Virus record (IMG/VR): IMGVR_UViG_3300043747_000015
Span: 1 to 24,208 of that record
Origin: a virus
Taxonomy: Duplodnaviria > Caudoviricetes
DNA length: 24,208 bases
Direction: 5' to 3' (one strand)
Shown one piece after another: positions 2,552 to 22,589 of the stretch (within the stretch, counting starts at the first letter, position 1; every line of letters begins with the position of its first letter). A program made the translations under genes and the position numbers. The notes under the pieces were generated by a model. That model saw only the letters and a program-made list of their open reading frames with translations. It was not told the origin of the DNA and did no database searches.

Positions 2552-2615
2552 TGTATACATCACTACTAGTAAGCTGTCTATTCCTATTCTTAATGATCTT
2601 CGGGGAGGTGAAGAA

Positions 2616-2899: not shown

Positions 2900-2912
2900 G
2901 AAAATTCATTAT

Positions 2913-2936
2913 GACGTTTTAGTCTCCAAGTGTGAC
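2913..2936 (-). repeat. 24-bp dispersed motif, copy A (GTCACACTTGGAGACTAAAACGTC)
   Basis: Starts 3 nt after the stop of 2940..4958; 19/22 identical to copy B near 10153. Confidence 0.8.
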
Positions 2937-2939
2937 GTT

Positions 2940-4958
2940 TTAATCTTTAAAGATAACCCCATTTGCCATTGCCATTTTCCATTGAACTGTACCATCATAA
3001 GGGATAATCGTAATCGTTCCAGTATATGAAATTTGTAGTATGGCATTGATCGCTTGGTTTGTACTTCCCACAAGGTTACACGGTATCCTTTGAGTATTGA
3101 TTACGGTGTTTGCTGGAATGCTACCTAAAACAAGGTTTCCAGTCCTTAATGTATTAAATGGTAAATTCAAGTCAATAAAAATTTTGTTTCCACTCACCGT
3201 ATACTTGTAGTAAGGTGCATAACTACTATTTATGTCAGAAACCAAAGTAGGGTCTAGTGCAAAATCTTTGATCTCTGAATATGAAAAGTTTTTGATATAC
3301 TGTTTTTTGCTTCGAGCATAGCCTTTATACAATGAACACCAGTTAACATTACCTGTACGGTCTGGAGGTGTTCCTCCAGGTGCCCCGATTGCAATCTTTA
3401 TAACATTCGTTACTTCATCTAACAGGTACGGGAAGTGTATTTTAACAATTCCACTATATTGTCCCACTTTACCATTATCAGAAAAAATGGTTGTATTACT
3501 GTTAGTCTGAACAACGAAATAACCGCCGCTAGTTAAAATATTACCATCAAGGAATATTGTATAGTACTTACCTTTTTCTAAAGGTTCGTTCAATTTGTAA
3601 GTTCCGATAGTTGAACCTGTTGTAATGCTTTTAACCGTGTCACCGTCTAAAATCAAATTGTTATCGCTATACATGCTCTCTATATTAGCAAGAGGAAAAC
3701 GGGCAGCCAATACACATTGACTCATATAAGTAGGAGACGCATCATAATAAACAGTTGTAATCCCGTTATCAAATTGAAGGGTTGAATAGATTCCCTCGTT
3801 TTTCTGATGAAGATATACCGCAACATGGTCAATTTTCATAAAAGCATTATTTCTTGCTTCTGCTGCTAAATCACCACTTACCCCGTTAGTCCAACTAAAG
3901 AATAAAATATCCCCGGGCTCTATGTTAGAAAAATCCGCATTCGGTTTAAAGGAATAGCCCTTTTCAAAAGCGTATTTCGCTATATTATTGGCATATCTCC
4001 ATTTAACAGGATCGATGTTTTGGAAAAAGAAATTAGATCCTTTATTTTGAGTATTACCAGAAACGTATTTTGAACGTTCATAAGGAACCCCGTGAATCAT
4101 AAGATTAGCGAAAGAAGAACAGTCAATCTGATTTTTTCCACCAACTAAATCCTGGGTGGTGTCATAGGCGGTGTAGGTATTGCCATACACAAGGGTAGAT
4201 ATATTGTTTAGGTAGGTCTGACCGTTATCAATTAACCTTTCAATAGCACCCCTTGAGTTGTGTATTTGAGATGCACTTTCTACTAATACATCATTAACCT
4301 GATTCATACTGTTAGGCACATCGTTAACCGTAACAACTTTATTACTTATCTGCAAGTCAGACATATATAAGGTTAAAGATGATTGAAAATTAAAGTACAA
4401 GTAATTGTTTTGTCTTGTTAAATCGGAAAGATTTAGTGTAAAGCTAATTTTATTCCATTGGTTCGCTGCACCTAAATTGACGAATACACCTGAACCAGTA
4501 AATGCCATCCTTATTTGAATTGATTTATTAGACACAGAAGGATATGCCCAAAATGAGATAGTCATTGTTTCGGAACTTATCATTGATTCCGTTAACAAGA
4601 TAGCAAAGTCCTTATTTACATCAGATGAACCCTCATAATTCACCGCATCAATCTTTAAAGACTTTTTACCGTTATACTGTGGCGAAGTAATCGCAGGCGT
4701 GAATGTATAGAGCGAACTCCTTGGAATGATATAAGGTAACACTTCAAAATCAGCATTACGAACTAAATTTCTACCTTTTAGTAAAATGTCTGTCTGCGTC
4801 GCTTTTTCTGCCAAACCCAACTCAACAGCCGTTAACCTTGTCCCCACACTCTGACCATTACCCGCACCCAAACTATTTTCTAAACTAACTATCCGATCCC
4901 ACACATTATTTGTATTTATCGTTTTAGCAGGTGGTTGCGGAATCCCTATTTTTACCAT
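2940..4958 (-). CDS. extra late/virion protein: carbohydrate-binding-like domain plus NlpC/P60-like cysteine-peptidase domain
   Basis: GRNLVRNADFE...NQWNKISFT jelly-roll/CBM-like segment; IDCSSF...EPGDILFF...DHVAVY NlpC/P60-like Cys-His motifs; tail-fibre-like C-terminus. Confidence 0.65.
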   Translation of the reverse strand: MVKIGIPQPPAKTINTNNVWDRIVSLENSLGAGNGQSVGTRLTAVELGLAEKATQTDILLKGRNLVRNADFEVLPYIIPRSSLYTFTPAITSPQYNGKKSLKIDAVNYEGSSDVNKDFAILLTESMISSETMTISFWAYPSVSNKSIQIRMAFTGSGVFVNLGAANQWNKISFTLNLSDLTRQNNYLYFNFQSSLTLYMSDLQISNKVVTVNDVPNSMNQVNDVLVESASQIHNSRGAIERLIDNGQTYLNNISTLVYGNTYTAYDTTQDLVGGKNQIDCSSFANLMIHGVPYERSKYVSGNTQNKGSNFFFQNIDPVKWRYANNIAKYAFEKGYSFKPNADFSNIEPGDILFFSWTNGVSGDLAAEARNNAFMKIDHVAVYLHQKNEGIYSTLQFDNGITTVYYDASPTYMSQCVLAARFPLANIESMYSDNNLILDGDTVKSITTGSTIGTYKLNEPLEKGKYYTIFLDGNILTSGGYFVVQTNSNTTIFSDNGKVGQYSGIVKIHFPYLLDEVTNVIKIAIGAPGGTPPDRTGNVNWCSLYKGYARSKKQYIKNFSYSEIKDFALDPTLVSDINSSYAPYYKYTVSGNKIFIDLNLPFNTLRTGNLVLGSIPANTVINTQRIPCNLVGSTNQAINAILQISYTGTITIIPYDGTVQWKMAMANGVIFKD
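4798..4821 (-). repeat. in-frame copy of the 24-bp motif (GTTGGGTTTGGCAGAAAAAGCGAC, encodes LGLAEKAT)
   Basis: Matches the TTGG..GA.....CGAC part of the consensus; lies at the junction between the N-terminal anchor and the variable domains. Confidence 0.5.
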
Positions 4959-4962
4959 ACTA

Positions 4963-5187
4963 TCACCCCTTTATATTTTCACCTTCATCATATTCAATCG
5001 ACTTTACACAATGATCTTTCTGAAACAAATTCAAAAACTTACACAACATCCTACAAAAAGGACACTTATCATGTTTCACAAGATGTTTACCCAAACGAGA
5101 ACTAATTGTCTCGTCAGGGTATCCGCCAAATAACGTATTAAAGAATTGGTCAATACTGATAAGGATGTTCCAAAAATATTGTTTCAC
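4963..5187 (-). CDS. small phage protein with DQxxNxxxGGxPDETISSR motif
   Basis: GTG start at 5187 after GGGGTG RBS; motif recognisable from small phage proteins; function unknown. Confidence 0.7.
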   Translation of the reverse strand: MKQYFWNILISIDQFFNTLFGGYPDETISSRLGKHLVKHDKCPFCRMLCKFLNLFQKDHCVKSIEYDEGENIKG

Positions 5188-5197
5188 ATTCTCACCC

Positions 5198-6196
5198 CTA
5201 TACAACATTCATTTTTCTAAACATTTCATACGCCAAATTCCTAACAACTTGATTATCAAATCTTAAATACCCATTCATAAAAGAACCAACTAATTTCTTT
5301 AACTGATAATTCTTTTTCCATCCCGTCAACATCATGGCGTTTTCTGAATGGTCTTCACTTGTCATAGCAAATACATATTTGCTACTTGGGTCATGTTCAT
5401 TAGCTAAATACATTAACCCTTTCTTGGTGTCCACCCATATACCAAAGGTGTTATTTTTATATAAAACAGAGAACACGAACTGACTTTCTTTTGATCTTTT
5501 CTCGATAAAAGTCTCTGAATCCTCTGTGAATTCGTTATCTAAACTCATTTCCCCGTATTCCGTATTTGCTATTAATTTACCGAATCTTGTTTCACGTCTA
5601 GCGTCTGAAAAGTCTTTACTGTCGGGAATCTCGACTAACACACTTTCCCACGCATTGTAACGTTTCTTTAAGTTTGGAATAATATTAAAATACAAGAAAA
5701 ACGGGTTAACAATAGTGGTACTGTTTGCCATACAAATGGTTCTTACATCTGTTCGATTTCTAAACACCGTATCCATTAAATTCAATAACGCCCTTGGTTC
5801 ATTTGGGATATAGGTTGAATTATCTTTTTCCCTTAGGAACTCATCATATAAAATGGTGGATACTTCAGGATAGGCGTTGGATTTTAGCGACTGCCACGAA
5901 CTTAAGGCAATCGCATAACCCGCTAACTTCCCATTAACATAAAACTCTTTCCCTTTAACTTTCAATTCATGCTCTGGAAATTCAGCCCCAATATCATTAA
6001 AGAAAGTTGTAATCTTTTTCAGATCATCCTTATAACGTCTAACATACATGAACTGTTTACCCGTTTTTATGAATTGTTTGACAACGTATTTCTTCATTCC
6101 GTACGACTTACCAACGCCACGGGCACCAATTACAAAATTTAAAATTCGGTTATAAGAAAGCATTTTATCAGGTGAATAATATAGTGACTTGTCCAT
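5198..6196 (-). CDS. DNA packaging ATPase (phi29 gp16 homolog)
   Basis: N-terminus MDKSLYYSPDKMLSYNRILNFVIGARGVGKSY resembles gp16; Walker B ILYDEF; follows the lysis genes. Confidence 0.95.
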   Translation of the reverse strand: MDKSLYYSPDKMLSYNRILNFVIGARGVGKSYGMKKYVVKQFIKTGKQFMYVRRYKDDLKKITTFFNDIGAEFPEHELKVKGKEFYVNGKLAGYAIALSSWQSLKSNAYPEVSTILYDEFLREKDNSTYIPNEPRALLNLMDTVFRNRTDVRTICMANSTTIVNPFFLYFNIIPNLKKRYNAWESVLVEIPDSKDFSDARRETRFGKLIANTEYGEMSLDNEFTEDSETFIEKRSKESQFVFSVLYKNNTFGIWVDTKKGLMYLANEHDPSSKYVFAMTSEDHSENAMMLTGWKKNYQLKKLVGSFMNGYLRFDNQVVRNLAYEMFRKMNVV

Positions 6197-6216
6197 TTCC
6201 AGAGCACTCCTTTTCC

Positions 6217-6990
6217 TTATCTGTTATCAGGAACCTTTATTTTTTGTTTTGGAAGAATCATATCTTTATTTGTGATTGAAGGATTTAACTTTAAAATTTT
6301 ATTAATTGTCGTATTATAAGCTGTTGCAATGTTAGTTAAATTGTCACCCTTTTTAACGGTATACGTAACAATCTTTTCTTTTGGTTTCCGTCTTTCTTCC
6401 ATTAATTGAATTTCAAGGGCAAAATCTCTGTACGATAAATCCATATCCACATTCCCCTTTATTCCATTGACTTTACCTACCCACGAATATTGCCAAATAT
6501 CCGCTGTCATTCCAAGTGATTTTGCTTCGGGGTAAGCAATCCATGAAGCATAAGGCTTCATCCGATCTAAATCCAAGTTTTGTCGGGCGAAGTCTTTACC
6601 AGAGTACCACATTGCGAAATAACCCGCTTTTTCAACCTCTTCAAGAAATGCAATAGCTGAATCAGTGAATTGTTTCTTACTCACACCATTTTTATTAACC
6701 TCTAAATCTAAAACTACTGGATACGTAAAATCAAAATCTTTGATATTATCAAGAAAGAATTTAACTTCACTTAATGCACCCGCAACAGTGTCAAACCGAC
6801 CAAAGTGGTATGGACCCACGGAAATATTATACTTTTTTGCACTTGCCACATTGTAAGCGAATTTATCGTCTACAAAGGTTGTCCCTTCCGTAGCTTTAAC
6901 GAATGCGAATTGTACGCCCGCCCCCTTCACACTAAACCAATCAATCGCGCCTTGATGGTGTGATACGTCTATACCTTTAAATGTTGGCAT
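6217..6990 (-). CDS. endolysin, GH25 muramidase with C-terminal LysM
   Basis: GIDVSHHQG, FVKATEG, VLDLE, WQYS, VDMD GH25 motifs; YTVKKGDNLTNIA...LNP LysM. Confidence 0.93.
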   Translation of the reverse strand: MPTFKGIDVSHHQGAIDWFSVKGAGVQFAFVKATEGTTFVDDKFAYNVASAKKYNISVGPYHFGRFDTVAGALSEVKFFLDNIKDFDFTYPVVLDLEVNKNGVSKKQFTDSAIAFLEEVEKAGYFAMWYSGKDFARQNLDLDRMKPYASWIAYPEAKSLGMTADIWQYSWVGKVNGIKGNVDMDLSYRDFALEIQLMEERRKPKEKIVTYTVKKGDNLTNIATAYNTTINKILKLNPSITNKDMILPKQKIKVPDNR

Positions 6991-7163
6991 TACTTTTGAC
7001 CGCCTTCCTGTTTTGCTGCTAAGTTATCAATACTAACTTGCAACTTTGTTAAAATATTAACCATGTTTTCAGTGTCTTTACTTTGTTTGATTAACATAAA
7101 CCCCGCCACGAAAATAGGGAAACCAACCTGACTAATTAATTGGCTAATTTCTGTTACACTCAT
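6990..7163 (-). CDS. putative holin (YvrJ-like single-TM protein), 57 aa, not in the ORF track
   Basis: MSVTEISQLISQVGFPIFVAGFMLIKQSKDTENMVNILTKLQVSIDNLAAKQEGGQK; GGGAGG RBS; TAATG coupling to the endolysin; occupies the phi29 gene 14 position. Confidence 0.8.
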   Translation of the reverse strand: MSVTEISQLISQVGFPIFVAGFMLIKQSKDTENMVNILTKLQVSIDNLAAKQEGGQK

Positions 7164-7183
7164 TGTTTACCCTCCCGATATAA

Positions 7184-8317
7184 CTATAATTTCCATCCAT
7201 TCAGTGCATCACTCAACAATAGAGCAATCGTTTGTTTTTCTTTTATAATAGGAGAATCAGGCGCGCTCCCACTATCCCCATCCGTATACCCTGAAACTTT
7301 CCAGTCATAGCCATTCCCATTAACAATGTCTACCCCACCGACAGAGAATACATCAAAAATATGTAACTCTGTTCCTGATAAACAATAACCTGGCTTTTGC
7401 GTAAAACCTGTATACTTTGAACCATTGATAACATTTAAGTGAAAATGATCCCCTGTCACATTTCCGCAAATTCCAGAATGCCCCATTATTGTCCCTTTTG
7501 TTATCTTGTCTCCAATAGAATATAAATGGTTACAATCATGGAAACAACTAAACGTAATATATCGAACTTGACCATCTGCACACATCACTTTATTACTAGA
7601 TTTCCAGATTAGATACGCATCTGAATCGTTTCTCCCTATACACTCAATATCACAAGGCGCATAGTAGGGATACACATCCGTTTTCCCCAAAAAGTCAATA
7701 CATAAGGTTCCTTGATGGGAGTAACTACCGTTTTCACCCTGTGATATATTGATTACATCCATGGGAAATTGCGCTAGTTGATAGCCCCCTGTTACCCCTG
7801 AACCTGTCCAATCCAACTCATTAAAACAACGTGCAGCGAATGCTTTTCGTGCAGCCATACTTGATGCTGCTGCCGCTGCGTTTGGTTTTTCATAGCTATA
7901 GGTAAAGGCTTCCGTCAAATAATCGACTGACCAATTCCCACTATTCGTTCTAAATTGTTTGAACGTCATATAACCGTATGCAGATTTATTCGTCCACTGG
8001 ATATTTTTATCAACCTCATAATCAATTCGGGCTAGTTGACTATCCCCATCATAAGGGTCTAGGCTACTAGAAACAGCCCAATCCCAATACTTATGCCTTG
8101 GTGTCCATTGCACTAATCCGTATCCTTTGTCAGCATCCCACGAAAAACCAAATTCAGACATTTGGGGGTTAATATAGGATTCGTGCCTCATGTTCCCACA
8201 TAAGGCACTTATTGACTCTTTTGACCATTTACCTTTAAAATGATTTACAACTAATTGAGCGTTTTGCAATGACTCTGTTTCGGTTAAGATTTCTTGAAAG
8301 CTACCGATCCAAGCCAT
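7184..8317 (-). CDS. tail lysin/morphogenesis protein (phi29 gp13-like: tail lysozyme plus M23-like peptidase)
   Basis: ALCGNMRHES...GYGLVQWT lysozyme-like motifs; H-xxx-D (HQGTLCID) and HFH zinc motifs; C-terminus LLLSDALNGWK. Confidence 0.9.
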   Translation of the reverse strand: MAWIGSFQEILTETESLQNAQLVVNHFKGKWSKESISALCGNMRHESYINPQMSEFGFSWDADKGYGLVQWTPRHKYWDWAVSSSLDPYDGDSQLARIDYEVDKNIQWTNKSAYGYMTFKQFRTNSGNWSVDYLTEAFTYSYEKPNAAAAASSMAARKAFAARCFNELDWTGSGVTGGYQLAQFPMDVINISQGENGSYSHQGTLCIDFLGKTDVYPYYAPCDIECIGRNDSDAYLIWKSSNKVMCADGQVRYITFSCFHDCNHLYSIGDKITKGTIMGHSGICGNVTGDHFHLNVINGSKYTGFTQKPGYCLSGTELHIFDVFSVGGVDIVNGNGYDWKVSGYTDGDSGSAPDSPIIKEKQTIALLLSDALNGWKL

Positions 8318-10119
8318 TAGATTAAATCGCCTTTATCAGTAGTAACAGTAGTATCATAGATCACACCAAGGGAACCGATACCCTTCCACACGTTACCCGT
8401 TCTTACAATGTCAGAACATGTATTCGTCACATATAAAGCGTAATTACCTTTGTTGGTTCCGTCTTTTGCAACGTTACCCACCAATGTACCCCTTGAACAT
8501 GTGGAAACGATGTGAACATGATTATAGGTGCTATTGACGCGGTTAATATTTCTAGTTCGATTTCCTACAATCGTAAATTCTGTTACGTTGTCAGAAACTA
8601 AAATACCGTGACTGTCAATATCTCCTAGGGAGTTTTCTGCTATTGTCACATTTACAGTCCCACCTGTCACAGAAATTCCGTTGCCTGTTAAGTCAAGACA
8701 ACGATTGGCAATGACTTTTAAACTTGTACCATATGAAACAGCAATAGCTGTATTCTGAATCCCTCTAATGGTGTTATGGGAAACATCTAAATTGTCAAAG
8801 TATTGTCCGAATACACATGCAGCGTTTCCACCTGCATCTTCAATGGTGTTATTCACGATTTTACAGTTACGTATTTTTGCATCTGTTGTACCATAAATCC
8901 GAATATGGTTTTTCGTTTTGATTCCCTTAAATTTGTTACCCGAGATTAGGAAATTATCAGCATCTTGGAAGCTAGAAGCAGGATTTCCATTAACATCAAA
9001 TTTGTCCGTATCTTTGAAAGCTACATAGAGAATGATTCCACCCTCTGAATTAAGGAATGTGTTATTTACAATTTTGACATTTTTCCAGTTGTACGCTTGC
9101 ATTCCATAATCTGTTACACCATCAAACATACAATCTTCTATTAATATGCTTTCATGCCATGCACCCATATAGGCACCATGCGAACCCATGCCCCTTGCTA
9201 CCGCTGTTGTCCCACTTGTACCACTTGAACCGAAATAACATTTTCTAAAGGTAATAGCTTTACATACAGTTCCGTCATAAGCGCCAAATGCGGGAAATCC
9301 GTCCGCACCAGCAAAGTCTAATTGAATCGCTTCCGCTGTTAGGTTACTCGCTGAAGCCGATAAACCAATACACTTTACATTGTCGAATAATACCCGAAAA
9401 CTAGAGTTACATTCGATAGAGTGGGAGTTTGCATCTTTCATAGTCAAGTCACGGAAAACTAAATCCCTAGCATGTGCAAAGGCAAATCCTGAAGCCGTTG
9501 AAGATTGTGTGACTCCATTAATATCCCATAATCCACCCTCAATGGTGATGTTCCCATTACCGTTGTATCCGGTAGCCGTTAAAGTGCCGCGGACACCATT
9601 CATTAATAAGTACCCTGAATGATTCCGTTTAATCGATGCACCGTGTGCCGATATTTTCGTATTTGCATAGATTGTTAATTCTGCTGTTGTTGTTAATGTG
9701 TACCCTTGTGGAATAATCAGATGAATTCCACCCGCTGTTTTAGCAAGGTCTAAACAGTTTTGAAAGCCTACTGTTTGAGAAAGGTTATTAACTTCGATGT
9801 ACCTTTTTACATTGATGAATGGTAATGCTGTTACCATTTGTTCAATGATATTTGCTAAGGTTCCATCATTTAACCATATGGTTAATTGGTCTCTTACCGC
9901 ATCTGTTAACCCTTCACCCATTACCCATGCAACAATCTCATTCCATTGGGCACCGATCCCATTTAACAGACCGCCAATGTCATTTGTATACTTAATGAGT
10001 TTGTTTAACTTTTGAAGAAGGGTTAATTCTTCATCGAATGCACTTGGCAAATAACGTTCATATTCTTGGAAATTCATTGTTGGTATGGTTTGCCATGGTG
10101 TTATTGTTGGTTGTGTCAT
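8317..10119 (-). CDS. pre-neck appendage/tail spike (gp12-like N-terminus, right-handed beta-helix)
   Basis: YERYLPSAFDEELTLLQKLNKLI resembles the phi29 gp12 N-terminus; repeated xxNxxx beta-helix coils (pectate-lyase-like). Confidence 0.85.
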   Translation of the reverse strand: MTQPTITPWQTIPTMNFQEYERYLPSAFDEELTLLQKLNKLIKYTNDIGGLLNGIGAQWNEIVAWVMGEGLTDAVRDQLTIWLNDGTLANIIEQMVTALPFINVKRYIEVNNLSQTVGFQNCLDLAKTAGGIHLIIPQGYTLTTTAELTIYANTKISAHGASIKRNHSGYLLMNGVRGTLTATGYNGNGNITIEGGLWDINGVTQSSTASGFAFAHARDLVFRDLTMKDANSHSIECNSSFRVLFDNVKCIGLSASASNLTAEAIQLDFAGADGFPAFGAYDGTVCKAITFRKCYFGSSGTSGTTAVARGMGSHGAYMGAWHESILIEDCMFDGVTDYGMQAYNWKNVKIVNNTFLNSEGGIILYVAFKDTDKFDVNGNPASSFQDADNFLISGNKFKGIKTKNHIRIYGTTDAKIRNCKIVNNTIEDAGGNAACVFGQYFDNLDVSHNTIRGIQNTAIAVSYGTSLKVIANRCLDLTGNGISVTGGTVNVTIAENSLGDIDSHGILVSDNVTEFTIVGNRTRNINRVNSTYNHVHIVSTCSRGTLVGNVAKDGTNKGNYALYVTNTCSDIVRTGNVWKGIGSLGVIYDTTVTTDKGDLI

Positions 10120-10152
10120 TGTTTCACCTCATTTGTAAATTTTTTATGTTTT

Positions 10153-10176
10153 GTCGTTATAGTCTCCAAGTGCGCA
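10153..10176 (-). repeat. 24-bp dispersed motif, copy B (TGCGCACTTGGAGACTATAACGAC)
   Basis: Directly follows the TAG of 10177..11631; shares an exact CACTTGGAGACTA with copy A and TGCGCACTT with copy D. Confidence 0.8.
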
Positions 10177-11631
10177 CTAACCTTTTACATAATCATAGAT
10201 ATTATCAATGTCAGCAACTGCAATTCTGCCGCTCCATGAGAATGTTTCCCCGACCATCAAAGAACTTATATTATAATTGGTAAAATAAAATTTTGGAGTT
10301 GTTGCACGTTGCCAATAGCGTACTGCTTTTGTTGTATCCTTACCTGTTAACCCTTTTCGAATCGTTTTTAAAGGGTAATCAATACTTGCAGCTGCAATCA
10401 AAGTGGGTCTTGCAGAGTTAACGATTGCATAACTATAACAATTGTCTTTTTCCTCGGTAAAATAATAATCCGAATCATCGGCAGCATTTACTTTTGAATT
10501 TCCGAAACTTGTTAAACCTTCATTCAAATAAGCAGGGTCAGCAGGTAACATAATTGGATAACCCGCACCTATGCTGGCAGCTTGGAGTGTTTTCCATTTA
10601 CCACTTATATTAGCAATTCCGTTTAAGTCAAAATGATAAGTGATTTTAATATTAGCAACATCACCACTCACACTTGGCAAACGTGCTGCAATGTCTTGAA
10701 TCAGTTTCACATCTTTACAAGGAATTACCTGTCCGTCTGTCATGGTTGTTGGGTCAGTCACGACACCATCTATTTTAAAAACAGGCGAAGAAGAATTGAA
10801 CGCTGTACCTACACCATGATCTGGAACCCATTGAGTATTTCCGTTCACCGTAATACTAAAAGCCATTTCTTTATTGGAATTTGTGATTAGTAAGTTCGAA
10901 TTATTATTGTTGTACTCCACATAACCAACGATTGTTCCGGTAGCAGTTGAAGAAGGGTAAAAAATCCATCCTCTAGCTGTTCCGCCTGATGGTGCATTTA
11001 ATGGATCAGCACCTTTAAAAGTTGCAACAATAGAATGGACTTTTGTAGGGTCTAAACCGCTCACAAGAGGGACATCTACCTGTCCTGCTGTAGCTGAATA
11101 AGTAGAAATTGTATAGGTTTTTGTTGGGTCATTATCAACAACAATGCTCCATATTCCCCCACGATTGTCCTTATATGCTCGAAACGTTAAAGAACTTCCT
11201 TTAACATTTGCAGTAAACGTGTCATTTACAGTTGTTGTGTACCATATTTCAGTAGAGGATTGAACCCACGTTCCTACTTTAGTTGCCAATTGTTTATCAT
11301 AAACGGATTGAGTAATTGATCCAACATAACACGCTCCAATTTTTAAAAAATCGTCGTTTGCGTCTTTCATCAAATTGTAGGAAACATGCTTAACACCGTT
11401 GTGCATAAAAATGGAATAATCATTCAAAGCGTTTCTTCTAAAAACCATTGAAGAATGACTTGTTAAATTCTTGATGATTTTTACAAAGTCCGCTTGTGAC
11501 ATGATTTTTTCAACATCACTTTGCTTCGCATTATCCGCCAAGGACGCCTGAAGGTCTGCTATCGATTGACCTAAATTCACAGGTTCACTGTGTGTATAAT
11601 CGGGAAAAGGCTTTTGTCCTACTGTTGCCAT
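10177..11631 (-). CDS. extra tail/receptor-binding-like protein
   Basis: Beta-rich 484-aa ORF in the tail module between collar and appendage genes; short N-terminal anchor ending in LADNAKQ. Confidence 0.6.
   Translation of the reverse strand: MATVGQKPFPDYTHSEPVNLGQSIADLQASLADNAKQSDVEKIMSQADFVKIIKNLTSHSSMVFRRNALNDYSIFMHNGVKHVSYNLMKDANDDFLKIGACYVGSITQSVYDKQLATKVGTWVQSSTEIWYTTTVNDTFTANVKGSSLTFRAYKDNRGGIWSIVVDNDPTKTYTISTYSATAGQVDVPLVSGLDPTKVHSIVATFKGADPLNAPSGGTARGWIFYPSSTATGTIVGYVEYNNNNSNLLITNSNKEMAFSITVNGNTQWVPDHGVGTAFNSSSPVFKIDGVVTDPTTMTDGQVIPCKDVKLIQDIAARLPSVSGDVANIKITYHFDLNGIANISGKWKTLQAASIGAGYPIMLPADPAYLNEGLTSFGNSKVNAADDSDYYFTEEKDNCYSYAIVNSARPTLIAAASIDYPLKTIRKGLTGKDTTKAVRYWQRATTPKFYFTNYNISSLMVGETFSWSGRIAVADIDNIYDYVKG
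11525..11548 (-). repeat. in-frame copy of the 24-bp motif (GGCGTCCTTGGCGGATAATGCGAA, encodes ASLADNAK)
   Basis: Matches consensus GCG..CTTSG..GAT....CGA; same orientation as copy B. Confidence 0.6.
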
Positions 11632-11644
11632 AATCCACCCCCAT

Positions 11645-11968
11645 TTAAATTGTGTACCAATAATTTTTTATATTGATTAACCATAAACCTGCATTTTCTA
11701 AAAGAGTAATGTCTCGTGAATCCTCAAATTTTAGATTCCCTAACCCATTTCTCAACACGACACTACCGCTATTTGAATTGAGTACATATAAAACCTGCCC
11801 ATCTGACCCAACAATGGTATTAACGCTTCCACCTGTTAAGAATTCAAGTCGTTTCTTTCCTAGTGGATTGACCGTTGAACTAGCATTTATGCTTGTGGTA
11901 CCCTCTGAATCGCTAACACCTGTTAACTCACCATAACGACTAATAATATCATCTAATGAAATCTTCAT
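11645..11968 (-). CDS. hypothetical late protein
   Basis: GGAGG RBS; co-directional within the late operon. Confidence 0.7.
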   Translation of the reverse strand: MKISLDDIISRYGELTGVSDSEGTTSINASSTVNPLGKKRLEFLTGGSVNTIVGSDGQVLYVLNSNSGSVVLRNGLGNLKFEDSRDITLLENAGLWLINIKNYWYTI

Positions 11969-11977
11969 ACCATCCTC

Positions 11978-12802
11978 CTAGTACACCAACATAAATAATT
12001 CTTTTCGCATTTCTCTGAAGATATCTTTTTCAATTCTTAGGAAGGTGGAACGATATTCATTGACCATTGAAGAAAAAGTGCTATCCCCTGTTTTTCCGGC
12101 AATGTATTGGAGATAATCTTCCGTTTCATTTATGGAGGTATTGCTAGTCGATCCAACATGAGACGTTTCACTAGAAGTTCCATCCACCGTATTATTGGAA
12201 GTTCCATCTTCGGTGTTACTAGCTGTTTTAGAATTATTGGTGTTATCTTCTTCAATCTTACTTGCATATTCGATAACCCCCGTCCCATCATTTGAGGTAA
12301 TGGTTAAACGTGATTCAGGTGTATCACTTAACAAGTTTCGACTAAAATTATCTTCGGTTCCTGTCCCGTTGCTTGTTTGGTGGGTGGTTCCGTTATTGGT
12401 TTGGTGCGCTGTCCCACTTGAATTTCCATCCATAGTAGAGGTTTGATTTTGCTTTTTATCGTTTGATTTTGTTTTTCTAATTTCCGTCATGGAGTTAACT
12501 AAAGGGTCAAAGTCTAGTAATTCGGATTCAAACAATTTATTAAAGTAAGGCATGTTCACGTTCATCCAGTTTTTTAACCTGAATTTGAATAATCCCTCTG
12601 TCTCGAATCCGATTTCACTCATATAGAAATTATTGATAAAGTGAGTTTCAAACACTTTCTTGTAATTGATATCAAAAATCGGATAATCAAAGTCAAACAA
12701 CTTGGGTCTACCAATTTCAATTCGTTGATCCCATGAAAGATTTTCAGTGTCCTGTGAGAATGCTTCAATGTAGTTTCGTAATTCCATTGTATAACTAGAC
12801 AT
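11978..12802 (-). CDS. lower collar/tail tube protein (gp11-like)
   Basis: MSSYTMELR...[11 protein letters not shown]...FETHF...[12 protein letters not shown]...ELFMLVY; ATG 12802 follows GGAGG and overlaps the connector stop. Confidence 0.92.
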
Positions 12803-15496: not shown

Positions 15497-15513
15497 TAAA
15501 TCAACTCCATTAA

Positions 15514-15575
15514 ATATGTGTGACTATTGACCCCTACACCTTTTAATAAGGTAAGCTATTAACCCCCACACATAT
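15514..15575 (-). promoter_or_regulatory. pseudo-symmetric structured element between the capsid and tail-knob genes
   Basis: Perfect 9-bp outer inverted repeat, 5-bp inner hairpin, and two GGGGTYAATAG direct repeats between them. Confidence 0.55.
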
Positions 15576-15584
15576 ATTAATTTA

Positions 15585-16937
15585 TTAAAGAACGATTGTA
15601 ACGATTGATTCACCAATAACGTCTGTTGTGTCTGGTCCAGCTCCGTCAGTATCGACTCCCATTCCAGTTACGGTTGCACGGACAAGTAATTCACCTGTTT
15701 GGTTAGATGCAACAGTTAAGACACCATTAGAGTCAATAGTGGTACCCGCCTGTTTAGTAGTAGAAGATGTAGAAGCAACTACAGACCAAGTAACAGGATG
15801 GTCTTGTCCATCTGTTGAACGTACATATGCTGTAAATTCAAAAGTATCTCCCGCTTTTAACGATACAATAGTAGGATCGACAATAACTTGAGTAACAGCG
15901 GGAACCGTACCACTAACAAACGCAACAGCATTTGAGAAACGTGATACAGATAGAGTTTGCCATAAGTGGAAATAGTAGTTCCAGTATAAGCCCTTAGGAT
16001 TCCGAATAGTCTCTAATTTCTGAAGATTGTCATATACCATAAACCAATCTCTATCAACTAGAACCGCTTCAAGTCCTGTAGAAGCAAAACCATCAATAAC
16101 AGTTACGTTCCCTAGGAATGAAGTCTTGTCCATGTTGAATGCTTTTGCTAAAACATCAACGTCAAGTTCTGCTTCCAAATCAGCGTCGATGATTAAGTGT
16201 AAATCATTCATGTCTGTACGTGTGCGCACCGCCAATGAGTTGAAATCACGAGAACCATTTGGAAGAGTCATTTTACGAGCAGTAGCACGCATTTTCTTGA
16301 CGAATTCTGTTGCCGCTGTAGCTGTGTCAGGTTTTGTCACTGGTACAACAGTGAAATAACCTTTACTGAAATAGTTGTCGATTAATAGTTTCATATATTC
16401 ATATTCATCAACTTCAGCGCTGTTATAAATTGAGTTAATAATAGAAGAAACGAAATCCTCGAAGTTACCCCAAGATACAAACGCAGATTTTAACTGTTCG
16501 TCTGAAATGGTTTGTTGATAAAAATCTTGACGGTTACGCTCATGGAATAGAACTTTAACGTTTGGAATTTGACGTTTGAAAACAGTAGACTCCGCATCAT
16601 ACGGGTCGTATTTGTGTGCTTTTGTAATGTCAGTGAAAATCTCTTCAATTGTTCTACCTTGCTGCATGAAACCTTTTTTGAACTTTTTAAGAGGGTTCTG
16701 AAGTAGAGCACGTTTAACAACTACTAGCCCGATACGGTCTACTAAGTTAACGATGAATTCATTTTGAACCGCTTGGTTAATCATGATACCCGCGCCAATA
16801 GAAGCAACGTTATCATAGCTTGCTAGACCAACGAATTGTTGGAAATTGTCACCCGATGAATTACGAATAGCATTTACAATATCATAAGTTTCTTGTACGC
16901 CTAGTGACGTTTTAATGTCTTGAATAGTAATACGCAT
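15585..16937 (-). CDS. major capsid protein (gp8-like) with C-terminal Ig-like domain
   Basis: [42 protein letters not shown]; BIG2-like C-terminus. Confidence 0.96.
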
Positions 16938-16945
16938 TTATATTA

Positions 16946-17254
16946 TTACACTCCCTTTTCGAGACCTTCGATAGTGACTGTCTCGCTGAATTGTTTTTCT
17001 TTTGCTTCCTCTTTTTGTTGCGGTGTACCCGATTCAGTACCTAATTGGCGAAACAGCTTGCTATTAGAAATAACAAGGTCTTTGTTTTCACCTTCAAGTT
17101 TTTCTTGTTTCTTTTGAAACTCCTCAATTTCTACGTCTGCCGAATCCATAGCAAGACGGAATTTTTGAAGGTTCTCAGAACGCGTTGCATGGTCTAGTTC
17201 TGGGTTTAATAGATCATTTAAAAGGGTCTCTCTTTCATCCCTAGATAATCTCAT
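16946..17254 (-). CDS. head scaffolding protein (gp7-like)
   Basis: LL.PELD...R.E.LQ...coiled coil...DLVISNSKLFRQLG; first late gene. Confidence 0.88.
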   Translation of the reverse strand: MRLSRDERETLLNDLLNPELDHATRSENLQKFRLAMDSADVEIEEFQKKQEKLEGENKDLVISNSKLFRQLGTESGTPQQKEEAKEKQFSETVTIEGLEKGV

Positions 17255-17293
17255 ATAAATTACCTCGCTTTCTATTAATTTCTCTACTCTTTA

Positions 17294-17302
17294 ATTTTAC
17301 CA
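17294..17302 (-). promoter_or_regulatory. candidate late promoter (A3-like), extended -10
   Basis: TGGTAAAAT (TGn plus -10) upstream of the scaffold gene, with no clear -35, as expected for a p4-activated promoter. Confidence 0.4.
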
Positions 17303-17417
17303 AATGATAGTACTATATAATAGAAGAAACTCGGTTTTCGGGTTTGTCAAGACAAAGTTTTAGGTGAAAATGAGGGGTTTTACTTTAAAAAGTTTTTCAA
17401 AAAAGTTCTAAAAATAG

Positions 17418-17446
17418 TAGACAGAAATAGAATAATAGTTTATACT
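17418..17446 (+). promoter_or_regulatory. early sigma-A promoter (A2-like)
   Basis: TAGACA, 17 bp, TATACT, with upstream A-tracts; divergent from the late operon. Confidence 0.75.
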
Positions 17447-17559
17447 TATAAATGTAGAGAGGTTAACAGCCAAGCGGGGCGATAAACACTCTATAGATCA
17501 TACTTATAGCTTAATAGAGGGGTTGCGACCCTACATAAAAGAATTGGAGGAGAAAGAAA

Positions 17560-17817
17560 ATGGCGGTTAAAATGATGCAACGTGAAGTAACTTCAACAGT
17601 TGTTAAATTCGCATCTGTTTTAGTAGAAGATGGGAAGGCAATTGCAATTGAAGGCGAACAAATTCTAGTAGGGAATGTGGAAGCTGATAAAGCCCAAAAA
17701 ATCCTTACAAAAGAATTAGGTGCAGGCGTAACGGTTCTATCAGTAGAAGCAGATACACAAGTTTATGAAATGCCTGTTGATGAATTTATCAAACTAGCAA
17801 CAATTAAAGAAGTATAA
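17560..17817 (+). CDS. double-stranded DNA-binding protein (phi29 p6-like)
   Basis: KMMQREVT.T.V..A...AQ......DTQVYEMPVDEF resembles p6; strong RBS; synteny. Confidence 0.88.
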   Translation: MAVKMMQREVTSTVVKFASVLVEDGKAIAIEGEQILVGNVEADKAQKILTKELGAGVTVLSVEADTQVYEMPVDEFIKLATIKEV

Positions 17818-17996
17818 TGGGTTGGTTCTTTTATGTTAACTTTACACTAGTGGTTTTCTTGGTTGTGGTTAGTTGGTTGAACTTCTATTATTCAGTAACT
17901 AAAACAAAACTAGAGTTAATCACCTGTATTTTATGGTCAGTGATATTCGTAATTGACTTGATTAGATTAGTAGTGTTTCAAATGTTTAACAATTAA
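17817..17996 (+). CDS. 59-aa two-TM membrane protein, not in the ORF track
   Basis: TAATG overlap with the p6 stop; MGWFFYVNFTLVVFLVVVSWLNFYYSVTKTKLELITCILWSVIFVIDLIRLVVFQMFNN. Confidence 0.65.
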   Translation: MGWFFYVNFTLVVFLVVVSWLNFYYSVTKTKLELITCILWSVIFVIDLIRLVVFQMFNN

Positions 17997-18072
17997 TTAA
18001 TTATTAAAAGGTTAACAAATTGTAGTTGAATTTTTCTCGCTAAGTTTAATTCACAAACAAAAAATAAAAATA

Positions 18073-18256
18073 TCATTCTTATGTGACGAATCAATCTATT
18101 GTACAGTATCTAGATAGTTGCGGAAACAACTTTCTAGTAGTTTTAAGTGGACGAAATTGCTTTGAATCGTGGGTAAATAGGGTATTGGATAAAATAAAAT
18201 TATCCCGTACATTATATCGTGTACTATTGAATGGTTATTGCACGTAAAACGAATGA
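18073..18256 (+). ncRNA. uncharacterised structured RNA or leader upstream of ssb
   Basis: Long interrupted closing stem enclosing three hairpins; G-U pairs favour the + strand; no ORF of 60 aa or more here. Confidence 0.55.
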
Positions 18257-18313
18257 CTAGCCCGCCCCTAATGAAATGAATTAAAAATCTTAATTGGAAT
18301 GAGGAATTTTATA

Positions 18314-18709
18314 ATGATTAACAATGTATCTTTAACTGGTAGACTTACAAAGGACGCTGAATTACGTTATACATCAAATGGAAATGCGGTAGCAAACTTC
18401 ACACTTGCGGTTAATCGTAAATTTAAGTCAGAGGGTCAACCGGAAGCGGATTTCATTAACTGCGTTATTTGGAATAAAGCGGCTGAAACACTTGTAAATT
18501 TCACTGGTAAAGGGTCTTTAATCGGTGTTGAGGGTAACATCCAAACGCGATCTTGGGAAGGTGAAGACGGTAAAAACCGTTACGTAACGGAAGTTTATGT
18601 AAACAACTTCATTTTCTTAGAGTCAAAGAAGGAAACGGAAGAGGAAGAAAAGGCACCCTCAAAACAGCCTGCTAAACAGGGCTATCAAAAGAAGTCTTAC
18701 AAAAAGTAA
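18314..18709 (+). CDS. ssb: single-stranded DNA-binding protein, bacterial OB-fold type
   Basis: [20 protein letters not shown]...FTLAVNR...ADFINCVIW...[15 protein letters not shown]; GAGG RBS before ATG 18314. Confidence 0.93.
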
Positions 18710-18720
18710 GGGGTGATTAG

Positions 18721-19050
18721 ATGCCCGCTACAACTAGAGGGGTTTATCACAATTTACGGAAAAGTAAATATACGATTTCTAATGGTGAAGTCGTATATTT
18801 CTTTTCAAGTGAGTTGTATCGAGATAAGTTTTTAAAAGGCTATGAGGTGAACCGAATTACCTTAAAAAATAAAATAGACAAGACGCCTTTGAATATGGAT
18901 ACCTTGGCTGATGTTTTGTTTTATGAAAAAATTGAAAAACGTGGGTTCTTTGTAAGATTAGATAGAGTACCAGTATCATATAATGATTTATATAAGTATG
19001 CTTTGAGAAAGATGAATGAGAAAGACTCTCCTAAGTGGGTGATTAAGTGA
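18721..19050 (+). CDS. late-gene transcription activator (phi29 p4-like)
   Basis: MP.T.RGVYHNL..S.Y...FFSSELY..KFL.GY...NMD.LAD..FY...EKRGF resembles p4. Confidence 0.9.
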   Translation: MPATTRGVYHNLRKSKYTISNGEVVYFFSSELYRDKFLKGYEVNRITLKNKIDKTPLNMDTLADVLFYEKIEKRGFFVRLDRVPVSYNDLYKYALRKMNEKDSPKWVIK

Positions 19051-19844
19051 CAACAGACAAGAAAATGCGTGTATCCAAAAAGGATAAAGCGGAATATACT
19101 AGATTAAAGAACAATGTAAAGAACAAGATCAAACGTGTACAAAAACAACATAACCTAGATTTATCGGGTCTGATCGAATTACCAGACCTTAATTCTTTCA
19201 CTAGAAAGGGTTTTAATTCGTGGAAAGAGGAAGCTGCAAAATTCTCTTCCAGAGTCAATAAAGTTAAGAAAAATGAATTCGGTGTCCCATACACAAACCA
19301 ACTAGTAAACGAATACAAAAGACGTGCAGATAAAGCCAATGAAATAAAAGATAAGTTTAATAAAGTTTTTGAAAATGTACCTTTAATATCAGGGGGTAAA
19401 CCTACGGGGATGTCCGTTGCGGTTTATGACATGTTGATGAAGGATGCAGATGACTTAGGAAATAAGACTCCACAAAAGTTTGAAATAGATAAAATCAAAG
19501 ATTTACGCGGTTTAGAAAAGAAAATGAAACGCATTGATGAAGAGCAAGACATACAAAGTTACTTGAATGATATGTCTGATATGCAAAAGAACTGGATTGA
19601 AGGAATGGAGAAGGTATTTAATAGTGCTGCTGACAGCTTGGTGAATAAAATTAAACTGTTGCCGCCTGCTATCTTTTATGAGTTGTATAAATCAACAAAA
19701 GAATTACAATTTGACTATTGGTACCCTGATGACGCGGAATCAGACATGTTTGATGAAACGGTATCATACATCGAAGAGCAATTTGATAATAATTTCAGAG
19801 ATAAAGAATTGATGTTATTGAAGGATTTCCCAGACAAATGGTAA
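19047..19844 (+). CDS. terminal protein (gp3-like)
   Basis: Basic N-terminus R....DKAEY.RL..N.K.KI.R; acidic C-terminal priming domain; directly upstream of the polymerase. Confidence 0.85.
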   Translation: MTTDKKMRVSKKDKAEYTRLKNNVKNKIKRVQKQHNLDLSGLIELPDLNSFTRKGFNSWKEEAAKFSSRVNKVKKNEFGVPYTNQLVNEYKRRADKANEIKDKFNKVFENVPLISGGKPTGMSVAVYDMLMKDADDLGNKTPQKFEIDKIKDLRGLEKKMKRIDEEQDIQSYLNDMSDMQKNWIEGMEKVFNSAADSLVNKIKLLPPAIFYELYKSTKELQFDYWYPDDAESDMFDETVSYIEEQFDNNFRDKELMLLKDFPDKW

Positions 19845-19876
19845 TAAGACTGACAAGAGGGGAGGGGTGGAAATAG

Positions 19877-21644
19877 GTGGCAAGGAAAATGTTTATGTCA
19901 GACTTTGAAACGACTACCGACCCCAATGACTGTCGCGTGTGGGCATATGGATGGATGGAGTTATTTAATAAAGATAACTGGAATATCGGGAATAACATGG
20001 ATGATTTTATGCAATGGTGTGAACAGGTGAAAGCGGACATTTATTTCCACAATCTTTAAATTTGATGGTTCTTTTATCGTAAACTATTTACTTGCTAATG
20101 GCTTTGAATGGACTACATCCAAGCAAGCGAGAGCACGAACGTTTACGACTATCATTTCTAAAATGGGTCAGTGGTACATGATCGACATTTGTTACGGGTT
20201 TAAGAAAAGCGGGAAAAAGAGAGTGAAGTTACATACCGTCATTTATGACAGCTTGAAAAAACTCCCGTTCCCTGTAAAATCAGTTGCTAAGGCGTTTAAT
20301 CTGGAAGTAGAAAAGGGCGATATTGATTACAAAGCGTATAGACCTGTTGGCCATGAAATTACGTATGAAGAAACAAAGTACATCTATAATGATATTTATA
20401 TTGTTACCTGTGCATTAGAAATACAGTTCAACCAAGGTTTGGAGAAAATGACAGTTGGATCCGATGCAATGGGTAGTTTTAAAACCATGATCGACAAAAA
20501 GGTGTTCGCCCGTAACTTCCCTAAATTGTCACCTGAACTAGATGAAAATATACGTAAAGCCTATCGGGGTGGGTTTACTTGGGTAAATGAGAAATTCCAA
20601 GGGGAACCAATAGGTGAAGGGATGGTATTTGATGTAACTAGTCTGTACCCTTCGAGAATGTATGATTGTGATTTACCATATGGAATACCTTTACCATTCA
20701 AAGGGGAGTATGTAAGCGACCCAAAATACCCATTGTATATTCAACATATTCGATGTGAGTTTGAAATAAAAGAGGGTCATATTCCTACCATTCAAATTAA
20801 GAAGAATTTGAGATTCAAGCAAAACGAATATTTAAAAGACAGTGGGGACAAGGTAGTAGATTTATATGTTTCCAATGTTGATCTTGAATTGATTAAGGAA
20901 CATTATCATTTATATGATGTGGAATACTTGAACGGTTTCAAGTTCAAGAAAAAGAAAGGGTTATTCAAGGAATACATTGATTTTTGGATGAACATTAAGG
21001 ATGAAGCAAGTAAAACAGGTAATGAAGCCATGCGGACGCTTGCTAAGTTGATGTTGAATAGTTTGTACGGGAAGTTTGCTAGTTCAATGGACGTTACGGG
21101 GAAAGTACCAACATTAAAAGAAGACGGGGCCTTAAAATTCATTCTTGGGGAAGAGGAAACAAAAGACCCTGTTTATACCGCAATGGGTGTGTTCATTACA
21201 AGTTATGCTAGAGACTATTGCATTAGAACCGCACAGAGTGTGTATGATAGGATTTTATACTGTGATACTGATAGCATCCACATAACTGGTACAGATATTC
21301 CCGAAGCGATTAGAGATATTGTAGACCCGTATGAGTTAGGTTTCTGGAAGCATGAGAGCACCTTTAAAAAGGCAAAATATGTTAGACAGAAAACCTATAT
21401 GGAAGAGTTATACGGGAAAATGATATGGAACGAAAAAGAAGGTAAGGAAAAATTTAAAGAGTGTTCACCTGAAGAAAGCACGTGCACGAAGGTAGATGTG
21501 AAGTGCGCGGGGATGCCTGAAAACATTAAACAATATGTGACCTTCGATAACTTTGAGGTGGGCTTTACGCATGATGGTAAGCTGTTGCCTAAACAGGTTA
21601 AGGGTGGCGTTGTGTTGGTGGATACGTATTTTACTATTAAGTAG
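19877..21644 (+). CDS. protein-primed family B DNA polymerase (gp2-like), interrupted by a +1 frameshift at about 20054-20060
   Basis: ExoI SDFETT; ExoII YFHNL/KFDG split across frames; motif A FDVTSLYP; motif B KLMLNSLYGKF; motif C YCDTDS; KTY. Confidence 0.93.
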
Positions 21645-21655
21645 GAGGATTAAAA

Positions 21656-21811
21656 ATGGAAAAGATTACAGAATTGCAAGATTTAAACGATAGGCTCTAT
21701 AAAGTGGTCGAAATTCTTAAAAGAAAACAGGAAAACAAAGAATTATTAACGATTCAAGCCGATTTAGTTGAAGAAATTGCTGATTATATGAGAGAAATTT
21801 TAAGCAATTGA
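21656..21811 (+). CDS. 51-aa hypothetical protein
   Basis: AGGAGG RBS; MEKITELQDLNDRLYKVVEIL...REILSN. Confidence 0.7.
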   Translation: MEKITELQDLNDRLYKVVEILKRKQENKELLTIQADLVEEIADYMREILSN

Positions 21812-21815
21812 TTGG

Positions 21816-21839
21816 TGCGTACTTCGAAGATTAAACGAC
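21816..21839 (+). repeat. 24-bp dispersed motif, copy C (TGCGTACTTCGAAGATTAAACGAC)
   Basis: Starts 4 nt after a stop codon, just before the next RBS; 20/24 identical to copy D. Confidence 0.8.
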
Positions 21840-21849
21840 GAATAGGAGG

Positions 21850-22164
21850 GTGAATGTGAGTTTTAAGGAAGAGTATTTAAAACATAAGAAGGAAAATAAA
21901 ACAGACGCAGAAATCATGGAAGTTTTAGATATTCCTCCTTATAAGTTTTATGAGTTAAAAAAGATGAATGATTTAATTAAGAAGTCATATGGGATTAAGA
22001 GACCTAGGATGAACTATTGTGGGTTAACAGATGAAATGCTTAGAAAAGGGGAGTCGATTGGTCTTTCTAAGCGTTTAATGTACAAACGTGTTCGTGAATT
22101 ATATTGGGATCATGAACGCGCTGTGACTGAACCGAAGGGTAAGAGGGGAGGGAAGAGAGAGTGA
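21850..22164 (+). CDS. putative DNA-binding (HTH-like) protein
   Basis: GGAGG RBS; basic; TDAEIMEVLDIP and GLSKRLMYKRVREL.WD.ERA.TEP resemble HTH segments. Confidence 0.6.
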   Translation: MNVSFKEEYLKHKKENKTDAEIMEVLDIPPYKFYELKKMNDLIKKSYGIKRPRMNYCGLTDEMLRKGESIGLSKRLMYKRVRELYWDHERAVTEPKGKRGGKRE

Positions 22165-22307
22165 TTTTATATCAATTAAACAGTGGATGGGCGCAAAAGA
22201 TTTATAGGACATTGGTTAATGAATATCACTTTAATTTGGAAACGTTACTTTTGTTGGATTGGGATAATTTGCAGAAATTGGCGGTTGAGTATGGTGTTAG
22301 GAGATAG
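22161..22307 (+). CDS. 48-aa hypothetical protein
   Basis: GTGA overlap with the upstream stop; GGAGG RBS; open to TAG 22307. Confidence 0.55.
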   Translation: MILYQLNSGWAQKIYRTLVNEYHFNLETLLLLDWDNLQKLAVEYGVRR

Positions 22308-22330
22308 ACGTTGTTGATTGATATGACGAC
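22307..22330 (+). repeat. degenerate motif, copy E (GACGTTGTTGATTGATATGACGAC)
   Basis: Keeps the CG-n3-TT-n4-GAT-n4-CGAC spacing; begins at a stop codon and precedes an RBS. Confidence 0.5.
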
Positions 22331-22349
22331 ATAAAAGGAGGTTGAATAA

Positions 22350-22565
22350 GTGGAAAATTTATTCGTTATAAAAGTAATCAATACGTCAGAAGCAGAATTG
22401 AGAAAATGGTACAGAAAAAAGGGCGGAGAACTGTATATTGTTAGGCACGACAAGGAAATAGGCGGGTTTAAGACAGTCGGCAACATTGATGATGAAGGAA
22501 GTATTGGTCATATTGATGGTTATTTTTGTGAAGTGATTGCAGAATTTGAATATGACGACGATTAA
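22350..22565 (+). CDS. hypothetical protein
   Basis: AGGAGG RBS; flanked by motif copies E and D. Confidence 0.7.
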   Translation: MENLFVIKVINTSEAELRKWYRKKGGELYIVRHDKEIGGFKTVGNIDDEGSIGHIDGYFCEVIAEFEYDDD

Positions 22566-22589
22566 TGCGCACTTCGAGGATTAAGTGAC
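22566..22589 (+). repeat. 24-bp dispersed motif, copy D (TGCGCACTTCGAGGATTAAGTGAC)
   Basis: Directly follows TAA 22565. Confidence 0.8.

Follow-up and report, generated by a model that had tools for sequence, protein, structure and literature searches.

Why does a small phage carry several copies of one short sequence at the ends of genes outside its core set, and which enzyme, if any, acts on them? The question is raised by a complete virus record of 24,208 bases (IMG/VR record IMGVR_UViG_3300043747_000015; this whole stretch is called the window below), which belongs to a small, phi29-like, Bacillus-type phage. We find that the repeated motif is a real family of sites, and that it is probably part of a natural cassette-exchange system. 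The motif forms a dyad whose geometry is that of Xer/dif sites, and pairs of such sites with unlike cores bracket gene cassettes. On comparative grounds, we consider it likely that the sites are the target of a Xer-like tyrosine recombinase of about 330 amino acids (aa), which would swap cassettes between phages and would act in trans on this one.

Each site consists of two arms (TKCGCAnTW and its mirror image) that flank a 6-bp core, which gives a 9-6-9 layout, or 11-6-11 with the flanks, and a total length of 24-28 bp. The consensus in the preliminary description of this DNA has to be amended, as it misses this dyad of arm, 6-bp core and mirrored arm. Across 104 distinct phage and prophage sites the arms mirror each other column by column, and no covariation between the arms was found within these sites (458 pairs vs 454 after shuffling, p 0.39). 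Mirrored arms that do not covary agree with a protein-binding site in double-stranded DNA and not with a hairpin of the attC kind, and the hairpin model (in its attC or HUH form) was rejected on the same ground. The copies in the window, named A to G, and one doubtful further copy are as follows.

2913..2936, minus strand: site A, cassette end, core GGAGAC (GGA class), 3 nt past the stop codon of a 672-aa gene
4798..4821, minus strand: site G, in-frame cassette start, core GGCAGA (GGC class), encoding LGLAEKAT at residue 47 of the 672-aa gene; its left arm is degenerate
10153..10176, minus strand: site B, cassette end, core GGAGAC (GGA class), abutting the stop codon of a 484-aa gene
11525..11548, minus strand: site F, in-frame cassette start, core GGCGGA (GGC class), encoding ASLADNAK near residue 29 of the 484-aa gene; rank 1 in one scan
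11964..11987, minus strand: doubtful copy over the gp11 stop codon and the next ribosome-binding site, with an arms-only score of 0.3
21816..21839, plus strand: site C, putative early cassette end, core CGAAGA (CGA class), 4 nt beyond the 51-aa gene at 21656-21811
22307..22330, plus strand: site E, a weak copy whose core GATTGA agrees with GACRCA in three of six bases; it sits where the start partner of D would be
22566..22589, plus strand: site D, putative early cassette end, core CGAGGA (CGA class), abutting a 71-aa gene (22350-22565)

The five copies first described (A to E) are all present in coding orientation at the positions given for them; A to D exceed chance, and E is weak. In leave-one-out scans, each held-out copy of A to D scored above every non-training position of the window. 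An external matrix made from 38 sites found in other genomes, which had been chosen with a matrix seeded from the window, placed D, C, B, F, G, the internal position 11190 and A as the top seven of 48,370 positions. With a second external matrix of 23 recombinase-adjacent sites, likewise chosen with a window-seeded matrix, the top five of 35 gene ends were B, D, C, A and E, the last scoring 1.3 against 1.1 for the sixth. E ranked 20th of 48,370 positions with the matrix made from A to D, and its core falls outside all four core classes; it is possibly a decayed copy that served as the start site of the cassette ending at D. Generic repeat finding recovered B and D only, as an inverted pair.

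Two copies were absent from the first list, and both lie in frame inside genes: F (11548, minus strand) and G (4821, minus strand). The offsets from the stop codon are +3 for A, 0 for B, +4 for C, 0 for D and -1 for E; the statement that every copy lies 0-4 nt from a stop codon does not hold for F and G, which are within reading frames. The further statement that no copy follows a core phi29 gene agrees with the scan of offsets -3 to +7, where none was found; the doubtful copy overlaps the gp11 stop codon and is probably a chance match.

The motif recurs in many Bacillota phages, and it does so in matched pairs. When core classes were read from the hits of a matrix made of the arms only, 32 of 56 in-frame hits had the core GGC, while the 47 post-stop hits were mostly GGA (21), CGA (15) or GAC (4), together 40 of 47. 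Among neighbouring sites of the four classes, 53 of 67 pairs were either GGC followed by GGA (42) or GAC followed by CGA (11), and only seven joined like cores. The GGC-GGA pairs, with GGC in frame and GGA after the stop codon, enclose the C-terminal domain of a virion protein and up to a few helper genes. The GAC-CGA pairs enclose one or two early accessory genes, and 15 of 20 CGA sites examined have a GAC partner 180-1190 bp upstream. The first three bases of the core are fixed in each class and the last three vary, with 11 variants after GGA and eight after CGA. Within the window, both F-B and G-A belong to the GGC-GGA type, and C and D are CGA sites lacking a clear partner. Several genes of 235-320 aa in the early cassettes of four other loci (L375, L378, L397 and L380, all GAC-CGA or CGA-ended) resemble DNA methyltransferases by eye.

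In 632 kb of held-out phage DNA from outside tail regions (two rows of this set being sister prophages), scores of at least 12 were found at 19 of 996 gene ends, compared with three on the opposite strand and none downstream. Among 16 loci collected with an anchor-protein profile and without the motif, the peptide encoded by the in-frame site was present in seven, and its leucine was encoded by TTG in six of these seven (background 0.20, p 4e-4); the constraint therefore acts on the DNA. Strict patterns were less productive: scans of this kind gave few matches, and a search of 301 genomes returned 19, several of them due to chance, compared with 10 in the reversed control. One in-frame and one repeated site came from 80 metagenome loci. 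Of 16 viral contigs from closer phi29-like phages, L002, L003/L004 and L011 have GGC-GGA cassettes whose cargo differs, and L001 has a single GAC site; no site with a score of at least 14 was found in the other 11, several of which are short contigs. Near-perfect dyads with the same arm type and another core were also seen between chromosomal genes of three Bacillales genomes (L106, L107, L108 and L122).

If the sites are cassette borders, the similarity between related genomes should break at them, as the preliminary description had proposed to check with a position weight matrix and the breakpoints of relatives. After alignments of at least 99% identity had been removed as duplicates, BLASTN alignments ended within 15 bp of the site centre at 36 of 72 informative sites, far above the 2-8 of 70-75 shifted positions, and compared with 268 of 1146 gene ends without a site. 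By class, such ends were found at 15 of 24 GGC, 15 of 21 GGA, four of 12 CGA and none of four GAC sites. In related prophage pairs, a common backbone extends to the in-frame core, an unrelated cassette follows, and the likeness returns at the post-stop core, with junctions resolved to the base in L127/L131 and L156/L157. In L244/L246, all 60 upstream bases, the left arm and the core are identical and the sequences beyond are unrelated, while L236/L238 and L234/L235 are unrelated as far as the left arm and alike from the core onward. These comparisons give strong support to exchange of the structural cassettes (30 of 45 sites). The earlier proposal that the motif marks boundaries where synteny breaks and domains shuffle accordingly holds for GGC and GGA sites, including a core-to-core match described next, while the evidence for the early sites C and D is only indirect.

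Two structural cassettes are predicted in the window, within the following features.

2921..4813, minus strand: cassette G-A, the C-terminal ~620 aa of a virion-protein-like gene, with a weak carbohydrate-binding module
2940..4958, minus strand: 672-aa gene, whose own 46-aa N-terminus is joined in frame at G to the cassette
10177..11631, minus strand: 484-aa tail-fibre-like gene with cassette F-B (phrog_18372 tail fiber, E 1e-17)

One of them is cassette G-A, which has its counterpart in a 21.6-kb locus (L372) of an unrelated 63-kb phage, a contractile-tailed myovirus with a tail sheath and SPP1-type head genes. The only BLASTN match between this locus and the window covers 1899 bp at 76.8% identity (window positions 2921-4813), and it runs from one base before the core of G to one base past the core of A; both cores are identical and the flanks are unrelated. 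The same domain occurs with other N-termini and 82-83% identity in three database proteins, one of which is named as a baseplate upper protein of Caldifermentibacillus hisashii, and its homologues in general are named baseplate upper or pyocin-knob proteins. The carbohydrate-binding family CBM_4_9 stayed below the cut-off in the L372 copy. In the myovirus, the common cassette (L372 9689-11647) lies among the head genes, after the portal and before the scaffold, and outside the tail module. Because of this location, the product may be head-associated.

For cassette F-B, the support for exchange is older and weaker than for G-A: homology to 19 proteins with other N-termini begins at or near F, and the 24-mer of site B ends, in identical form, an unrelated cassette in the phi29-like L011. 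Atlas searches gave no name for either cargo. When contigs of two soil sequencing runs were compared with positions 1-20000 of the window, no joint or listed loose end was found at A, B, F or G, an outcome that carries no weight, as one run may be the source of the record and the other covers it thinly. In the early region, C and D may be the ends of accessory cassettes moved by the same enzyme, although comparative support for the early copies is weaker than for the structural cassettes; none of the 16 early sites is spanned by any alignment.

Which enzyme could recognize such sites? When 26 viral records with sites were searched with Pfam, 12 proved to have a tyrosine recombinase; two of these recombinases are clearly of a Xer-like type of about 330 aa and lie within the tail module. 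The best models for this protein are XerA, XerC and XerD, all below their cut-offs, and the closest solved structures are those of XerD and XerA. Its domains correspond to PF00589 and the SAM-like core-binding PF02899, and the catalytic residues R185, K210, H277, R280, H303 and Y312 (RKHRHY-type) are invariant in eight sequences. In 11 of 13 viral loci of the family (58-100% identity), a GGC-GGA pair lies no more than 4.6 kb upstream of the recombinase gene, and the remaining two have an in-frame site; in contrast, no such pair accompanies any of 12 distant tyrosine recombinases used as a control. A small gene for a Cro/C1-type helix-turn-helix (HTH) protein often stands between cassette and recombinase. 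Among 301 Bacillales genomes, the family is represented by eight loci in prophage tail modules and five in chromosomal accessory regions. Seven of the eight prophage loci have at least one site upstream (two of these seven were used in training), and the five chromosomal loci have sites nearby.

These chromosomal loci (L273, L274, L275, L281 and L282, in genomes G109, G294, G035, G106 and G259) form a subfamily, with several broken copies, among small accessory genes. One copy is next to groES-groEL, and sites of the same type occur nearby, twice as pairs 62-70 bp apart; the loci are possible cassette arrays outside prophages. Other recombinases were considered and rejected. Tyrosine recombinases of 180-200 aa beside ArpU-like genes had no convincing site in five loci, and BtCS33 and phiCM3 carry one and lack sites; the tail-module recombinase gp15 of BtCS33 is only 23% identical to the candidate. 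As separate observations on these two phages of the Bacillus cereus group, which lack the motif, the distant recombinase of BtCS33 sits between a tail gene and the holin, and another short dyad, A-rich and T-rich, follows some early genes (L094 34650 and 35411; L095 34263 and 35015), which is perhaps a parallel system.

The preliminary description had stated that the window encodes no integrase, and this is borne out: neither recombinase families nor the profile of the candidate recombinase matched any of its 37 open reading frames. The profile likewise found no match in three phi29-like relatives. A mechanism that would accommodate the data begins with one recombinase that binds both arms and does the cutting. 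Since the two sites of a cassette have unlike cores, the cassette would be kept from excising itself, and recombination would join like cores of two phage genomes that share a cell, so that two crossovers replace the cassette. The in-frame GGC site would keep the incoming domain fused to the resident anchor. Recombinase-less phages could borrow the enzyme from a prophage or a chromosomal copy in a co-infected cell. More speculatively, each crossover may need no more than a single pair of strand exchanges and subsequent replication, in the manner described for CTXphi, because only the first three core bases are constant within a class. A broader version of this model is attractive but more tentative, and we hold it at somewhat less than even chances: a Bacillota-wide exchange network with a prophage Xer-like recombinase, at least four core classes and two orthogonal pairs, one exchanging virion and receptor-binding domains in frame and the other early accessory genes, in which recombinase-less lytic phages (protein-primed podoviruses, and myoviruses) retain the sites and share the cassette pool in trans, and chromosomal copies use these sites to build arrays of accessory genes.

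Several observations weigh against exchange by this recombinase. Every matrix traces back to the copies in the window itself, and the 13 recombinase loci are not independent, five being about 90% alike. Most site-bearing phages lack the candidate enzyme: only two of 26 records clearly contain its family, the family is rare (12 of 301 Bacillales genomes), and its profile has no match in the phage that carries L372. The order of classes is not universal, as L277, L278 and L087 place GGA in frame and use GAC at tail ends. The F-B domain was found in ten loci at 24-40% identity, two with a clear end site, two with a clear start site, and none with both at a score of at least 13. For the early sites, C and D both lack a clear GAC partner, like five of 20 CGA sites, the flanking genes are not conserved, and a homologue in Stills of the gene before D has no site; breakpoints within 15 bp were found at four of 16 early sites, no better than at gene ends (p 0.77).

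Four other explanations were weighed against this evidence. The motif could be a conserved linker (the end of a coiled coil in tail proteins, and elsewhere a spacer between stop codon and ribosome-binding site), with the modules joined by homologous or micro-homologous recombination through RecA or phage annealing proteins. Its in-frame copy does encode a helical-looking peptide that ends varied anchors, any crossover within a common 24-mer would yield similar junctions, and a dedicated recombinase is absent from most site-bearing phages. We nevertheless regard this as unlikely, given that the dyad is kept in non-coding copies, codon choice is constrained, partners differ in the arms and match in the cores, the core classes are ordered, and the sites are specifically linked to one recombinase family. 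A slightly smaller likelihood is assigned to plasmid-dif-like sites recombined by host XerC/XerD (CodV/RipX), perhaps with a phage FtsK-like protein, which would leave the phage recombinase as a bystander or helper. Such sites would share the 11-6-11 geometry (PMC3089051), one host dif (L413) has a left arm near that of the motif, and use by recombinase-less phages would be explained; however, three host dif sites score no more than 0.8 on the full matrices, the symmetric motif has nothing like a XerD-type right arm, sites are absent from FtsK-bearing phages, and the sites are linked to the phage recombinase.

The dyad might instead serve to control accessory genes as an operator or RNA signal, read for example by the small HTH protein that is encoded next to the recombinase, and breakpoints would be secondary. 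Dyad symmetry, early copies directly before ribosome-binding sites and the frequent Cro/C1-type HTH gene adjoining the recombinase agree with this, but copies within reading frames at domain joints, asymmetric cores oriented by strand, junctions at the core in both directions and the lack of hairpin covariation make it improbable. Least credible of all, and in our judgement very improbable, is the suggestion of the preliminary description that a relaxation-type protein could be the enzyme, in which case the replication-relaxation (HUH-like) protein of the window would cut the sites as single-stranded hairpins. The gene is present in the window and the arms could pair; however, the arms show no covariation, and this protein is not favoured because post-stop sites are missing from five annotated phages with the FtsK module, in three of which a replication-relaxation gene is annotated. 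Exchange by the Xer-like recombinase thus remains the reading that we prefer.

The carrier itself has the gene content of a phi29-like phage (Salasmaviridae-type), judged by its genes and not by formal taxonomy: a scan of the 37 open reading frames found the terminal protein, B-family polymerase, p6, gp4, phi29 capsid, connector, tail knob and packaging ATPase. Apart from the polymerase, the window has no relatives at the DNA level among annotated phages, and tblastn against these phages gave no match for the 672-aa gene or for a 102-aa gene. Two further genes lie at the left end of the window.

590-2201, plus strand: FtsK/SpoIIIE-like gene and replication-relaxation gene, with the nearest annotated match in Cytobacillus phage Bfsp1 (51%)

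A bacterial-type single-stranded DNA-binding protein (PF00436) is encoded at 18314-18709 (plus strand), in what we take to be the place of phi29's own gp5. A frameshift near 20050 splits the DNA polymerase region (19877-21644, plus strand) into two open reading frames, 19877-20059 and 20163-21644; both match phrog_1907, and the split may be an assembly error or a programmed shift. The genome ends are probably missing from the record, because no inverted terminal repeat was found between its ends (1-30 vs 24179-24208) and the final open reading frame is truncated.

Precise trading of receptor-binding domains among unrelated phages is usually ascribed to chance or to homologous recombination. 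Now that there is a defined site with classes of core, and an enzyme to try, such trading can be put to a direct test that needs only a small recombinase and a pair of 28-bp sites. If the model is true, the xQLA(D/E)xA joint that is so common in Bacillota tail proteins would be a DNA signal, a lytic phi29-like phage would use a prophage enzyme in trans, and a natural orthogonal set of sites would be available for cassette exchange in laboratory strains of Gram-positive bacteria.

Several known systems share some of these features. Integrons (IntI, attI, attC) hold mostly promoterless one-gene cassettes that end in a site by the stop codon, and a tyrosine recombinase lies beside the cassettes. 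All of these features recur here. However, the earlier label of an integron-like mechanism does not hold, as the site of only 24-28 bp has no attC-type hairpin signature, the cassettes lie between two unlike sites with no array of like sites, and replacement is likelier than insertion. The candidate is not an IntI-type integrase either (85.8 bits on TIGR02249 vs a cut-off of 265), and none is present in the window. In engineered recombinase-mediated cassette exchange, the exchangeable segment is flanked by heterospecific lox or FRT sites whose arms agree and whose cores differ; the combination of like arms and unlike cores is the same here, but the system would be natural, with at least two orthogonal pairs and an inferred mechanism. 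For the linker or boundary sequences known from modular phage evolution, and for PeSL cassettes in T4-type phages, the proposed mode of action is homology or a role as promoter elements. Short conserved border sequences are common to both cases, and here they are dyads with classed cores and a linked recombinase.

The dif site has two arms of about 11 bp and a 6-bp core (PMC3089051). The motif has the same layout of arms and core and does not match the host XerC/XerD boxes: three host dif sites score no more than 0.8, one having a similar left arm and none a similar right arm. In Acinetobacter, pdif/dif modules (PMC9455709) are flanked by sites that resemble chromosomal dif and are acted on by host XerC/XerD, on plasmids. 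Like those, the cassettes are accessory modules between Xer-type sites that appear identical in different backbones and have their enzyme off the module; unlike those, the sites are symmetric, phage-borne and unlike host dif, can be in frame, and are linked to a single phage recombinase. In the literature searched, which lay outside supplements and most subscription papers, we found no description of the motif or of its exchange system, and the main text of a 2024 review of phi29-like phages (PMC11476376) does not use the word 'recombinase'.

The closest published system is the Rin shufflon of Bifidobacterium prophages (Mavrich et al. 2018, PMC6109161), where a XerD-like recombinase acts on one 11-bp asymmetric repeat by inversion within one genome. 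In both, a Xer-like recombinase with no arm-binding domain lies beside a receptor-binding gene (here in prophages and not in the window), and one site is within the gene and a second, directly oriented, right past its 3' end, as in F-B and G-A of the window and in the 42 GGC-GGA pairs; a constant N-terminus is joined to a variable C-terminus. Rin keeps several spare C-termini in inverted orientation, whereas no inverted spares were seen on either strand of the 13 viral recombinase loci and the window. Instead, the sites described here are 24-28-bp dyads with unlike cores, exchange would take place between genomes, a second pair of sites serves early genes, and the users include phages that have no recombinase of their own.

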